A DNA stretch of 64,000 nt, taken from assembly GCA_049997815.1 (NCBI GenBank), contig JBEKVQ010000002.1, positions 10,483 through 74,482 on the forward strand, given 5' to 3'. The DNA is from Minisyncoccia bacterium (GTDB lineage Bacteria; Patescibacteriota; Minisyncoccia; UBA6257; GWB1-50-10). Of this stretch, positions 2,705 through 42,587 are shown in pieces (position 1 is the first letter of the stretch; every line of letters starts with the position of its first letter). The notes below the pieces were generated by a model. The model had not been told where the DNA came from. It saw nothing but the letters and a program-made list of their open reading frames with translations, and did no database searches. Position numbers and translations under genes: made by a program.

Positions 2705-3147
2705 TGAAAAAACCATACATCATTGTCGCAGTCGTAATCGTCGTCATCATCGCGATTTATTTCATAGTTTCGGGCGGGAGTTCCAATCCGTCTCCGAGCG
2801 CTCCGGCAGCCGCCAATCCGGCGCCCGCCGCAACGGCCCCGTCATCGCCGATCCCCGGCAAGGTCTATCCGACCGCCAATCCGACTCTCTCCAAAGTTAC
2901 CATCAGCATAAAGAACTTCGCGTTCAACCCGTCGTCGCTGAAGATAAAACCGAAGACGGAAGTAACGTGGGTCAATAACGATACCACCACCCATACGGTT
3001 ACATACGATTCCGGCAATCTCTTCGATTCTGGGCCCATCCCTCCGGGCAAATCATTCAGTTTCACTTTCCAGGACATCGGTCTCATCAGCTACCATTGCA
3101 GTATTCACCCGTCGATGAAGGGGACCATCAACGTTTCGAACTTCTAA
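2705..3147 (+). CDS. membrane-anchored cupredoxin-like (plastocyanin/azurin family) copper protein
   Basis: Start chosen at MKKPYIIV (TM helix), then a Pro/Ala-rich linker. C-terminal HCSIHPSMKG matches the type-1 copper ligand pattern H...C..H....M. Confidence 0.6.
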
Positions 3148-3623
3148 TGATATTGAAAATAGGAGAACCTGCCCCCAGTTTCGAATTGCCGGATCAGAAC
3201 GGTCAGGTCCGCCGTTTAAAGGACTATCGTGGAAGTTGGGTGCTTTTGTACTTCTATCCGAAGGACGACACGCCGGGGTGCACGAAAGAAGCCTGTGCCA
3301 TTCGCGACAACTTCCCGGATTTTCAGGAACTGGAACTCAAGGTTCTGGGCGTAAGCATCGACTCGGTGGAGAGCCACGAGAAGTTCGCCGAAAAATACGA
3401 CCTGCCCTTCACGCTTTTATCCGACGAGAAGAAAGAAGTGGTCGGGAAGTACGGCGTTTGGGGCAAGAAGATGTTTCTGGGCCGGGAGTTCGAGGGCACG
3501 CTTCGGACCTCGTTCCTCATCGACCCGGAGGGGAAGATAGCCAAGATTTACGAGGACGTTAAGCCCGAGATTCACGCGAAAGAAGTTTTGAATTTCTTCC
3601 AACAAGGTCAAGCCGAGCGATAG
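3147..3623 (+). CDS. bcp: thiol peroxidase / peroxiredoxin (Bcp-type)
   Basis: YFYPKDDTPGCTKEA peroxidatic-Cys motif with overall Bcp-like length. ATG overlaps the TAA of the upstream gene (3145-3149). Confidence 0.8.
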   Translation: MILKIGEPAPSFELPDQNGQVRRLKDYRGSWVLLYFYPKDDTPGCTKEACAIRDNFPDFQELELKVLGVSIDSVESHEKFAEKYDLPFTLLSDEKKEVVGKYGVWGKKMFLGREFEGTLRTSFLIDPEGKIAKIYEDVKPEIHAKEVLNFFQQGQAER

Positions 3624-16327: not shown

Positions 16328-16372
16328 TGAAACCAAAATATCCATAGGCAAGCTATGGACATTTTGATTTGT

Positions 16373-16683
16373 GGAGATGGCGAGAATTGAACTCGCGTAC
16401 GGAACGATTCGGCAAACGTTTCTACAAGTTTATTCCCTCGGTTGCCCTTGGGACGGTTTTGCTTTCCTGTTTTAGCGAAGGATACGGAAAGCGGATCTCC
16501 TCCGCGAACTCACGATATGACACCGGTTGATCCCTAGTGAGTATCAGGGCCGATGCGGCATTACGCGAAGGCGAATGCCGGAGCTACCGTTTTGTTGGCA
16601 GTTATCTTAGAGGCCGTTTTAGTGAGCGGCCGCCTCAGCTTGCTGCGCCTGCGTCGTCTATCCCGTCGAAGCCGATCATCCCC
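16373..16683 (-). ncRNA. ssrA: tmRNA (ssrA), one-piece, about 311 nt, CCA not encoded
   Basis: Minus-strand 5' end GGGGAUGAUCGGCUUCGACGGGAUAGACG closely matches the tmRNA consensus (GGGGCUGAUUCUGGAUUCGACGGGAU in E. coli). 3' end GCGAG-UUCAAUU-CUCGC-CAUCUCC-A has a T-arm and an acceptor strand pairing with G3.U70. Internal reading frame GCC AAC AAA ACG GUA GCU CCG GCA UUC GCC UUC GCG UAA gives tag (A)NKTVAPAFAFA. Lies immediately downstream of smpB. Confidence 0.85.
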
Positions 16684-38520: not shown

Positions 38521-38545
38521 AAAAACGATTCTCGATTTTATGTTG

Positions 38546-38616
38546 TCGGGCCGCCGGGATTTGAACCCGAACTAAATCCTCCCAAAGGACTCGTGCTACC
38601 GTTACACTACGGCCCG
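38546..38616 (-). tRNA. tRNA-Pro (anticodon UGG)
   Basis: Acceptor CGGGCCG/CGGCCCG; D-arm GUGU-AACGGUA-GCAC; anticodon stem AGUCC/GGAUU with loop UUUGGGA (G37); T-arm UCGGG-UUCAAAU-CCCGG; discriminator A. Confidence 0.85.
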
Positions 38617-38654
38617 CCTCTCCCTTTAAACTATCCGATTTTTACTATAGAATC

Positions 38655-38726
38655 AACGAAATCGCCCCTTGTAGCTCAATGGATAGAGCAGCGCTCTTCT
38701 AAGGCGTTGATGCGGGTTCGATTCCT
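38655..38726 (+). tRNA. tRNA-Arg (anticodon UCU)
   Basis: Acceptor CCCCUUG/CGAGGGG (one U.G pair); U8; D-arm GCUC-AAUGGAUA-GAGC; anticodon stem GCGCU/GGCGU with loop CUUCUAA; T-arm GCGGG-UUCGAUU-CCUGC. Confidence 0.75.
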
Positions 38727-38743
38727 GCCGAGGGGGCTTTTTA

Positions 38744-41355: not shown

Positions 41356-41730
41356 TTATAATTCAAATTTTCTTCCCTGATAATTCATCGCTTCTTGAAC
41401 AAGTAGTGCATCGTTTTTTGTGCTGTGCTTTATGGTGTGGCAGTTGGCACAGAGGAGCTCGCATTTTTTCAGTTCACTTTTTATCACTTCCCATTTTTTA
41501 TTCGCAACATTTCCTATTATAAAATCTTTCTTTTTAGGATTCGTATGGTGGAATTGAAGTGCAGCTTGATTACCGCGCCAACCACAATTCACACATTTCC
41601 CTCCAAGGTACTTTATGGCTGCCGCTTTGGTCCGAAATCTCCTTACCTTCGTGTTGCAAGAGCCGCATCTAGCCCTGCATCTGCTTTGGTAGTCTTTAAA
41701 CGCGTTGCCACACAATTTACATATCCTCAT
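41356..41730 (-). CDS. free-standing HNH endonuclease (Cys-rich, zinc-finger flanked)
   Basis: Multiple CxxC pairs and a C-terminal LLCANCHTIKH HNH core. AT-rich gene lying 90 bp from the intron-containing tRNA. Confidence 0.65.
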   Translation of the reverse strand: MRICKLCGNAFKDYQSRCRARCGSCNTKVRRFRTKAAAIKYLGGKCVNCGWRGNQAALQFHHTNPKKKDFIIGNVANKKWEVIKSELKKCELLCANCHTIKHSTKNDALLVQEAMNYQGRKFEL

Positions 41731-41818
41731 TGAATATAATTATAGCATTGCTCGCTCTACCGGGGAAGCGATTGAAAAATAAGGTCTTCCTTGATATATT
41801 TTGAGTACAACTTAATAA

Positions 41819-42112
41819 GCCGCGGTAGCTCAGTGGTAGAGCGCTACCCTAAACTCTTTGGGGCCTTCCGCAGTAATGTGGATTGAATAATTGGGTGAAT
41901 TCGGGGGAAACTTCTTAAAAGAAATAATCCCGAGCCAAGCTCTGATGGGATCCGTCAGTTGGCGGAGGTATCGGAGAAGGTGTAGAGACTAGTAGGTGAG
42001 TCCCAACGATAATCCTACGCAAGCGCCCAACTTCCTTTTAGAAGGAAGATGATATAGTCCAAGCAAACCTTGGAAGAGGTAGGCGTCGGGTGTTCGATTC
42101 ACCCCCGCGGCA
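41819..42112 (+). tRNA. tRNA-Phe (anticodon GAA) interrupted by a 222-nt group I intron in the anticodon loop
   Basis: 5' exon GCCGCGGUAGCUCAGUGGUAGAGCGCUACCCU (41819-41850). 3' exon GAAGAGGUAGGCGUCGGGUGUUCGAUUCACCCCCGCGGCA (42073-42112). The joined exons fold as a canonical tRNA that is very similar to E. coli tRNA-Phe. Confidence 0.75.
41851..42072 (+). ncRNA. group I (IC3-like) self-splicing intron
   Basis: Exon U33 precedes the 5' splice site, which can pair CCCU.GGGG with intron nt 10-13 (P1). The intron ends in G. Contains GAGCCAAGCU and AAGGUGUAGAGACUAGUAGG segments that closely match the P7/P3 cores of bacterial tRNA introns (for example Azoarcus/Anabaena). Confidence 0.7.
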
Positions 42113-42116
42113 CAAA

Positions 42117-42587
42117 ATGATAAAGATAAAGTCGTTCCGTCAAACGCGGGGTTATTGCGGTCCCGCATCGCTCAAGATGGTGTTGGGATATTACGGCGCG
42201 AATAAAAGCGAGGCCGCTTTGGCAAAGCTATCTGGCGCCACGCGCTCTCGCGGCATAGACGCTAAGGGCATGCTCCGCGCCGCCGGAAAACTTGGTTTTG
42301 AGGGATTGATAAAAGATTATGCGAGCATCAGCGATATCAAGCGATACATTAAGCAAAACATTCCGGTGATAGTGGACTGGTTCTCGCAGGATGATGGCCA
42401 TTACTCGGTCGCAGTTGGTTTGGATGAACGATTCATTTATCTTCAGGACCCGGAGATCGGAAAAGTCCGCAAGTTGGGCTTGGAAACCTTCAGGCGTGTC
42501 TGGTTCGACTTTCCGGGGTTGTCTCCGTATCCTCGAAAAAATCCGATTATTCGAAGGATTATCGTAATAAAGAAAAGGGGTAGATAA
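42117..42587 (+). CDS. C39-like (papain-fold) cysteine peptidase domain protein
   Basis: GYCGPASLKMVLGYYG catalytic-Cys region typical of the peptidase_C39-like family. The ATG lies 4 nt after the tRNA-Phe 3' end. Confidence 0.5.
   Translation: MIKIKSFRQTRGYCGPASLKMVLGYYGANKSEAALAKLSGATRSRGIDAKGMLRAAGKLGFEGLIKDYASISDIKRYIKQNIPVIVDWFSQDDGHYSVAVGLDERFIYLQDPEIGKVRKLGLETFRRVWFDFPGLSPYPRKNPIIRRIIVIKKRGR

Follow-up and report, generated by a model that had tools for sequence, protein, structure and literature searches.

Free-standing homing endonucleases are found in the tRNA regions of phages, as exemplified by the HNH enzymes F-TflI, F-TflII, and F-TflIV of phage T5. SegB of phage T4 is likewise a free-standing homing endonuclease of a phage tRNA region (PMC2330249). 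In collaborative or trans homing, represented by F-CphI of cyanophage S-PM2 with the psbA intron and by MobE of T4 with the I-TevIII intron (PMC3984707; PMC6083498; PMC2790892), a group I intron whose open reading frame (ORF) is absent or defective adjoins the gene of a free-standing endonuclease. The enzyme acts on the gene in its uninterrupted form, with its target at the intron site or close to it, and the intron gives immunity and can be co-converted. The intron of the Synechocystis tRNA-fMet gene encodes its own enzyme, I-Ssp6803I, of the PD-(D/E)XK type (Bonocora & Shub 2001, as cited in PMC3984707). The locus described here lies in a stretch of 64,000 nucleotides from contig JBEKVQ010000002.1 of a Minisyncoccia bacterium (the window, in which all coordinates are given unless a comparison locus, denoted by an L-number, is named). 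It consists of a tRNA-Phe(GAA) gene (41819–42112) split by a group I intron and, 88 bp away on the opposite strand, the gene of a protein with an HNH nuclease domain. An earlier note on this DNA had pointed out the split tRNA-Phe gene and the adjacent HNH gene, and the observation was confirmed. With a probability of about 0.6, the pair is read as an intron accompanied by a free-standing HNH homing endonuclease that would be aimed at the tRNA-Phe gene, the intron being one route to immunity.

The window has the layout of the F-CphI and MobE systems, in that an ORF-less intron adjoins a free-standing endonuclease gene, and the same layout was found in 28 distinct intron-bearing alleles. Those systems concern phage protein-coding genes and were established by cleavage assays, whereas the window presents a cellular tRNA gene as the likely target, deduced from comparison. 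In a further difference from F-CphI and MobE, the intron appears to be only one of at least three immunity routes and is mostly found without the nuclease. The likeness to SegB and the T5 enzymes lies in the position of a nuclease gene among tRNA genes, which favours inheritance of the neighbouring tRNA region, and phage homologues of the window HNH protein sit in tRNA arrays. However, SegB is a GIY-YIG enzyme, and the phage systems act between co-infecting phages, whereas the window gene lies on a Patescibacteria chromosome and is linked to just one tRNA species. It differs from I-Ssp6803I in being free-standing and of the HNH type. By analogy, the immunity logic of the locus is best read as that of collaborative or trans homing and of phage tRNA-region enzymes such as T4 SegB.

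Linkage of the HNH gene to tRNA-Phe and the allele pattern

The genomic contexts of three homologues and of 80 metagenome loci were compared; 78 loci, each with 400 nt or more of upstream sequence, were taken as informative. A tRNA-Phe gene was present upstream of the HNH gene, on the opposite strand and at a distance of 75–152 nt (mostly 83–98 nt), in all 78. The other flank of the HNH gene varied, being occupied by an ABC ATPase, by tRNA-Arg(UCU), by tRNA-Val, or by a hypothetical protein followed by tRNA-Arg(CCU). After correction of four ARAGORN calls, 39 of the linked tRNA-Phe genes were found to contain the intron and 39 to lack it. The suggestion of a partnership between intron and HNH gene was therefore upheld only in part: the gene is not a chance neighbour, but its tie is to tRNA-Phe. 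Simple collaborative homing, with the HNH gene tied to the intron, was ruled out by the intronless half of the loci.

Distinct mature tRNA-Phe sequences were sorted by the presence of the HNH gene and of the intron. None of the 55 distinct HNH-linked alleles (none of 56 with L221 included) was both canonical and intronless. All 28 HNH-linked alleles with an intron had the canonical D-arm GGTAGAGC together with C31:G39. Among the 27 intronless ones, 23 had an altered D-arm, in more than 10 different forms including T20C, a one-base insertion giving GGTAGTAGC, GGAA, AGCA, and GAGT, and the other four had T:A or A:T at 31:39. Immunity by D-arm changes alone was rejected, as L162, L167, L184, and L210 are intronless yet keep GGTAGAGC; because all four have a non-C:G pair at 31:39, the predicted site was widened to include this pair.

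Relatives of the same synteny, fetched through a neighbouring HSP20 gene, served as controls. The intronless tRNA-Phe alleles that the earlier note had proposed to look for in relatives were found at 39 of the 78 HNH loci and at seven HNH-less loci of HSP20 synteny. All seven HNH-less controls keep GTAGAGC and C31:G39, five of them with the full 8-mer; an eighth locus of this synteny, L221, has both the HNH gene and the T20C change. Scored on the 8-mer, 5/6 controls were canonical, and Fisher tests, with relatedness ignored, gave p = 1e-6 when every allele was included and p = 2.5e-5 when the comparison was restricted to intronless alleles. The nearest HNH-bearing relative differed within the D motif in 7/7 matched pairs. 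Between L217 (without the HNH gene) and L124 (with it), 0/39 differences were observed outside the D and anticodon arms and six inside, namely one D-motif position and five positions in nt 26 and the anticodon stem.

Since the mature tRNA made from intron-bearing alleles is canonical, the constraint would act on the DNA and not on the tRNA molecule. The allele pattern places the predicted site at nt 18–33, with its end at the point of insertion, and agrees with a DNA site that runs from the D-arm to the anticodon loop and is interrupted by the intron. From these comparisons, a resident tRNA-Phe gene seems to have several ways of avoiding being a target, the intron among them, and the link of the intron to the HNH gene is indirect; the intron phylogeny showed no co-transfer with the HNH gene.

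A number of observations weigh against the reading of the HNH protein as a tRNA-Phe-directed homing enzyme with the intron as one means of immunity. The intronless half of the HNH loci does not suit a tight intron–nuclease partnership. The intron is much commoner than the HNH gene, which was present in only four of about 93 intron-bearing species genomes among the matches listed, always at the tRNA-Phe position. The closest relatives of the window intron, L035 and L046 (81–82% identity), are without the HNH gene, so there is no sign of the intron travelling with it or depending on it. The share of introns at HNH loci is a raw share, counted among the HNH loci alone. The Fisher tests overstate independence because the sequences are related, and the HNH-less intronless controls number only seven and come from a single synteny group. 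In addition, neither fold nor PDB searches matched the protein significantly to any characterised homing enzyme, the copy of the D-arm motif in the HNH promoter (described below) could be a plain promoter element, and cleavage, target site, immunity, and autoregulation are all deduced from comparison.

The lack of the intron at half of the HNH loci, its usual occurrence without the HNH gene, and the lack of that gene beside the closest relatives of the window intron also speak for an alternative that is considered unlikely. Here the intron would be real and the HNH gene unrelated to it, a free-standing homing or selfish nuclease gene whose target would be either another site or the intergenic DNA on the upstream side of tRNA-Phe, and the differences in the D-arm and anticodon stem would reflect lineage history or hitch-hiking of a linked tRNA allele. 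HNH similarity follows intron status, the best matches being mostly intron-bearing and the weaker ones mostly intronless, which fits shared ancestry, and free-standing enzymes like T4 SegB act in tRNA regions without an intron (PMC2330249). Lineage history or hitch-hiking would, however, have to account for more than 10 independent types of change on the same 7–8 nt, for a difference at the D motif in every matched pair, and for canonical intronless alleles in none of the HNH-linked cases as against all seven controls, while the canonical D-arm was kept in every HNH-linked allele with an intron.

In the model proposed for a tRNA-Phe-directed nuclease, an extended −10 promoter would drive the HNH gene and give a leaderless mRNA. 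The protein would recognise the DNA of the uninterrupted canonical tRNA-Phe gene, from GTAGAGC in the D-arm to the anticodon loop, and would cut or nick the canonical intronless gene, and the HNH gene would be copied beside the repaired tRNA-Phe gene along with a resistant allele. With its site divided by the intron, the resident tRNA-Phe gene of the window would escape; D-arm or 31:39 substitutions would bring about escape in other genomes. By way of the GGTAGAGC copy in its promoter, the HNH protein may repress its own gene. On the allele comparison, the HNH family probably cuts “unprotected” tRNA-Phe genes. The fuller proposal, that a chromosomal HNH nuclease homes on tRNA-Phe itself in Patescibacteria and that the intron or the D-arm and 31:39 changes are kept as protection, is put forward tentatively, at somewhat short of even odds.

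The intron alone adds little, being a further member of a catalogued class that is common in Patescibacteria. The value lies in its HNH neighbour, a small conserved nuclease family tied to a single tRNA gene over many genomes and some phages, with a comparative signature that points to its target and to three escape routes. If the proposal is true, it would provide a rationale for the persistence of ORF-less tRNA introns in streamlined genomes, with a self-splicing intron maintained as protection against a selfish nuclease that represses itself through a copy of its target motif. Collaborative homing would then extend from phage protein genes to cellular tRNA genes, and the family would represent a compact (124 aa) sequence-specific nuclease with a recognition motif that can be guessed beforehand. 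No account of linkage between an HNH gene and tRNA-Phe in Patescibacteria came up in literature searches, an absence that is not proof of novelty; the strict linkage and the escape pattern were not found in the searchable literature, and the intron itself is known.

The HNH protein, its promoter, and its relatives

The description of the HNH gene as AT-rich was borne out by its G+C content of 40.8% (41.6% at third codon positions, GC3), compared with 49–50% (GC3 57–61%) in its neighbours. The protein matched Pfam HNH (PF01844) with 26.4 bits against a cut-off of 21.4 and matched PHROG HNH families with a best E of 3e-26. A CxxC...CxxC zinc ribbon forms its N-terminal part, and an HNH (ββα-metal) domain comes next. 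Altogether, 331 homologues were retrieved; the best 120 of the 331 share 68–99% identity, nearly all are 124 aa long, and the named members among them belong to Patescibacteria. The residues C46, C49, H61, H62, N74, N77, C94, C97, and H98 are among 46 that are invariant in the family, as are the two CxxC pairs near the N-terminus. Tertiary structure prediction with AlphaFold2 (AF2) gave a model with a predicted local distance difference test (pLDDT) score of 84. Foldseek comparison of this model with the PDB returned nothing significant, the weak matches all being HNH nucleases (best E = 0.25). A PDB sequence search gave weak zinc-ribbon matches only, and an NCBIfam search gave no match. As regards the comparison with known intron-associated homing endonucleases suggested in the earlier note, homologues were found inside tRNA-Thr and tRNA-Asn introns, and no characterised enzyme was matched significantly by fold or in the PDB.

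An extended −10 element, TGnTAnAnT (TGCTATAAT in the window), is present upstream of the HNH gene in 68 of 71 distinct loci and lies 6–8 nt from the start codon in 61. The HNH mRNA of the window is probably leaderless because this element is only 8 nt before the ATG; on reading of the sequence, no Shine-Dalgarno motif was seen before the start codon. Farther upstream by 6 nt lies a conserved box, GGTAGAGC, which is exactly nt 18–25 of the tRNA-Phe D-arm, inverted relative to it. GGTAGA(G/A)C was found at a fixed 6 nt from TGnTATACT in 64 of the 71 loci, and the spacer layout as a whole (GGTAGA(G/A)C, 6 nt, TGnTATACT, 6–8 nt, ATG) is conserved in 64–68 of them. A role of the box as the −35 element was ruled out by its spacing of just 11 nt to the −10 element. 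It is proposed that the box is a candidate operator bound by the HNH protein. Autorepression by I-TevI is a precedent for a nuclease acting on its own promoter.

The HNH gene is an AT-rich indel, that is, an optional insertion between conserved neighbours. In the synteny group with an ABC transporter and an intron-containing tRNA-Phe gene, it is present in the window, L002, and L120 and missing in L046 and L053, and the distance from the ABC transporter to tRNA-Phe is 55 nt in L046 compared with 508 nt in the window. In the HSP20 synteny, the gene is present in L124 and L126 and missing in L214–L220. The exact borders of the insertion could not be read from an alignment of L124 with L217, as the flanks beyond the tRNA genes are too diverged. 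In HNH-less loci, a partial copy of the tRNA 5′ end was observed just upstream of tRNA-Phe (L217, ∼3096–3160; L053, ∼815–850). In L217 it consists of GCCGAGATAGCTC...GGTAGAG with a 17-nt insert and in L053 of a GCCGCGGTA-like fragment. These partial copies may be scars of past recombination at the site.

Distant homologues of the HNH protein (36–49% identity over the core) are encoded by intact ORFs of 103–147 aa in introns of tRNA-Thr(UGU) and tRNA-Asn(GUU) genes. These ORF-bearing introns are 537–613 nt long and belong to the same intron family as that of the window, and the N-terminal zinc ribbon is also present in the tRNA-Thr intron versions. They were observed in L106, L028, L052, L109, L038, L084, L021, L043, L089, L094, and L026, at site 33/34 in tRNA-Thr(UGU) and 35/36 in tRNA-Asn(GUU), with the ORF starting ∼35–45 nt into the intron. 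Judged by homology, the products would represent homing enzymes of the HNH type for which bacterial tRNA introns hold the genes. In two large IMG/VR phage contigs, homologues 52–57% identical to the window protein directly abut tRNA-Phe in tRNA arrays (L222, 2421–2836; L223, 2501–2905). Read with genetic code 11, the L223 ORF is interrupted by an in-frame stop, so that it would be either a pseudogene or a gene from a phage in which a stop codon is recoded. Cronobacter phage CR3 likewise has its homologue inside a tRNA array, and that in a Klebsiella phage lies outside any tRNA array.

This distribution bears on a second alternative, in which the HNH protein is a domesticated host factor, either a regulator of the divergent tRNA-Phe and HNH promoters or a tRNA-Phe-related nuclease, kept by shared regulation. 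Such a role would suit the uniformity of the family (68–77% identity among listed members, one 99% near-duplicate aside, with a fixed length of 124 aa and the 46 invariant residues), the conservation of the spacer that holds both promoters and the D-arm-identical box, and the fact that no degenerate HNH copies were seen by tblastn. It is nevertheless judged improbable in view of the patchy spread of the gene over 331 homologues and 4/∼93 intron-bearing species genomes among the matches listed, its presence or absence between syntenic relatives, its foreign base composition, and the occurrence of homologues inside introns and in phage tRNA arrays, as well as the invariance of the catalytic HNH residues.

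The tRNA-Phe intron, its fold, and its class

After in-silico splicing, ARAGORN recognised the joined exons (32 and 40 nt) as a canonical 72-nt tRNA-Phe(GAA), and its intron mode found this gene too, placing a 222-nt intron between U33 and G34, as had been claimed. Without the intron search, the tRNA-Phe gene at 41819–42112 was missed. It is the sole tRNA-Phe gene within the 64-kb window, and its CCA end is not encoded (GCGGCA|CAAA). The covariance-model search proposed earlier gave a match of Rfam Intron_gpI (RF00028) to 41841–42082 of the plus strand with 69.4 bits (gathering score 50, E = 1.5e-15), covering model positions 1–253 of 253; behind “AGACUA,” the sequence has a single insertion of 30 nt that the consensus lacks. 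The intron holds no ORF, in line with the statement that it is too small to encode a homing enzyme.

Homology to Mba55.Phe.2Ug, a sequence of the seed alignment in Williams 2020 (bioRxiv 10.1101/2020.01.27.920355), was the basis for assigning the helices of the intron (Table 1). The P1 pairing and the terminal G described in the earlier note were both found. Exon CCCU together with intron AAA pairs with intron nt 7–13 (UUUGGGG), so that P1 has 7 bp: CCCU/GGGG with the U33·G pair at the splice site (U−1 at 41850, G10 at 41860), lengthened by AAA/UUU. The internal guide 5′-CUCUUU|GGGG-3′ (41854–41863) provides GGGG for P1 and CUCUUU for P10, which pairs with GAAGAG at the start of the 3′ exon in 6/6 positions. 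By pairing with both exon ends, the guide would align the exons for the two transesterifications.

The assignment of the core to the small bacterial IC3 tRNA introns was retained with a qualification: the core matches these introns, but the intron is not plain IC3, as it contains a conserved extra hairpin (41992–42018) between P7 and P3′. Because the hairpin sits where introns of subgroup IA characteristically have their P7.1/P7.2 helices, the safest label is “IC3-like with an added hairpin.” Its 17-nt loop (UGAGUCCCAACGAUAAU) is highly conserved, and GUCCC within the loop could pair with GGGAU in the P6a internal loop (41947–41951) as a candidate tertiary contact; the Mba55 seed has GGGGU there. 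The introns of Azoarcus tRNA-Ile and cyanobacterial tRNA-Leu(UAA) are likewise small, ORF-less, self-splicing IC3 introns located within bacterial tRNA anticodon loops, and their P3–P8 core (Aol6.Ile2.5Ug and Leu.3Ug sequences) is nearly identical to that of the window intron. They differ from it in host and insertion point, 36/37 in tRNA-Ile and 34/35 in tRNA-Leu in contrast to 33/34 in the window tRNA-Phe, and are without the P7–P3′ hairpin. To our knowledge, no endonuclease gene is associated with either of them.

Covariation was evaluated in 123 distinct homologous introns, using a MAFFT alignment not fitted to structure. P1, P2, P3, P4, P6, P6a, the extra hairpin, and inner P8 are paired in 90–100% of the sequences, with several compensatory types; position −3 of P1, for example, is C:G in 62 and G:C in 60 sequences. 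P7 with its bulged A is invariant in 123/123. The pair counts for P5, P6b, outer P8, and P9 are blurred because the MAFFT alignment was used without covariance-model realignment. P10 has at least five of six pairs in 114/123 introns, the guide (A/C/U)UCUU(U/C) occurring with exon GAAGAG and (A/G)UUUUC with exon GAAAAU. All 133 recovered tRNA-Phe introns are located at CU|...G|GAA and have U−1 and omega-G. The compensatory changes over the 123 homologues therefore argue that the fold is under selection, and from its sequence and predicted structure the tRNA-Phe intron is a genuine group I intron, predicted to be self-splicing. A dead tRNA-Phe gene containing a decayed, non-splicing remnant is highly improbable: although the 64 kb of genome in view would allow for a second tRNA-Phe gene elsewhere, all catalytic-core helices, U−1·G, omega-G, and P10 are intact, the exons form a perfect tRNA, and decay is at odds with the selection on the fold seen in the homologues. 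Two exon types were observed among the tRNA-Phe introns of L001–L119, C31:G39 with GAAGAG and A31:U39 with GAAAAU, each with a matching guide; the HNH-linked intron-bearing alleles are all of the C31:G39/GAAGAG type.

The view that a tRNA-Phe host with insertion at 33/34 is unusual was not sustained. With Williams 2020 (bioRxiv 10.1101/2020.01.27.920355), the count of bacterial tRNA settings that contain introns rose from 4 to 21, and the seed alignment of that study includes a class “Phe.2Ug,” with the seed Mba55.Phe.2Ug having the same host, site, and extra hairpin. The window intron has the features that define the class, namely a tRNA-Phe host, insertion between 33 and 34 (anticodon-loop position 2), U−1, and omega-G. 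It shares with the Mba55 seed the core segments AAUUCGGGG, AAUCCCGAGCC, AAGGUGUAGAGACUA, and GAUAUAGUCC and the P7–P3′ extra hairpin with the loop UGAGUCCCAAC(R)AUAAU, and the differences are confined to the peripheral helices P2, P5, P6a, P8, and P9. The linked HNH gene of the window has no mention in Williams 2020.

To survey the class, the motif GTAGAGACTA-N3-9-TGAGTCCCAAC was scanned in one genome per species, and at least 119 genomes were matched, nearly all labelled as Patescibacteria lineages. The other matches among those listed were a few metagenome-assembled genomes labelled Bdellovibrionales or Gammaproteobacteria and one cyanobacterium. Among the matches listed, the host was tRNA-Phe in 86/119 according to ARAGORN and in ∼93/119 after the splice sites were re-derived; the remaining introns are in tRNA-Thr(UGU), tRNA-Asn(GUU), and a few other tRNAs. 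The scan underestimates the Phe.2Ug class, since the exact motif is present in only 9 of 31 introns that were found independently by way of the HNH gene. The intron belongs to a known class that is widespread in Patescibacteria, and it looks mainly vertically inherited.

Features of the locus and flanking genes

Table 1. Positions of the tRNA-Phe exons, intron helices, HNH gene, and promoter elements in the window.
Feature	Position	Strand	Basis
Free-standing HNH endonuclease gene, 124 aa	41356..41730	−	Pfam, PHROG, homologues, AF2 model
HNH extended −10 promoter TGCTATAAT	41739..41747	−	TGnTAnAnT conserved
Conserved box GGTAGAGC, 6 nt upstream of HNH extended −10	41754..41761	−	Conserved in 64/71 loci; putative role
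Probable tRNA-Phe promoter: TTGAAA, 17 nt, TATATT preceded by TG	41772..41800	+	Consensus scan; putative function
tRNA-Phe(GAA) 5′ exon, nt 1–33, ends in U33	41819..41850	+	ARAGORN, spliced and unspliced; sequence read
D-arm GGTAGAGC within 5′ exon	41835–41842	+	
Group I intron, 222 nt, without ORF	41851..42072	+	Rfam RF00028; ARAGORN
P1	41847–41853 / 41857–41863	+	
P10	41854–41859 / 42073–42078	+	Checked per sequence
P2, GUAA loop	41867–41872 / 41877–41882	+	
P3	41891–41897 / 42024–42030	+	
P4	41901–41906 / 41928–41933	+	
P5, short	41912–41915 / 41920–41923	+	
P6	41934–41936 / 41979–41981	+	
P6a	41940–41946 / 41970–41976	+	
P7, with bulged A	41985 and 41987–41991 / 42055–42060	+	
Extra hairpin between P7 and P3′, 5 bp, 17-nt loop	41992–41996 / 42014–42018	+	
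P8	42031–42037 / 42042–42048	+	
P9, minimal	42061–42063 / 42069–42071	+	
Omega-G	42072	+	
tRNA-Phe 3′ exon, G34 to A73	42073..42112	+	ARAGORN

The probable tRNA-Phe promoter ends 18 nt short of the tRNA 5′ end, and a similar TTGCAA/TTGAAA...TATTAT layout is present in the spacers of other loci. Downstream, in the segment 42113–42587, the ATG of a C39 peptidase ORF is at 42117, 4 nt past the discriminator base of tRNA-Phe, in agreement with the spacing reported earlier. No promoter-like or terminator-like site was predicted between tRNA-Phe and this ORF, so the C39 mRNA is probably co-transcribed with the intron-bearing pre-tRNA. A Zn/Mn-type ABC transporter is located upstream of the HNH/tRNA-Phe locus, and beyond it lies a divergent tRNA-Pro(UGG)/tRNA-Arg(UCU) pair (38545–38737). 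The order HNH, ABC ATPase, ABC-3 permease, tRNA-Arg, tRNA-Pro recurs in L120–L123; elsewhere, tRNA-Arg(UCU) comes directly after the HNH gene in some loci. The window also contains a standard one-piece tmRNA gene (16369–16683, minus strand) with the tag peptide ANKTVAPAFAFA, which is unrelated to the tRNA-Phe finding.

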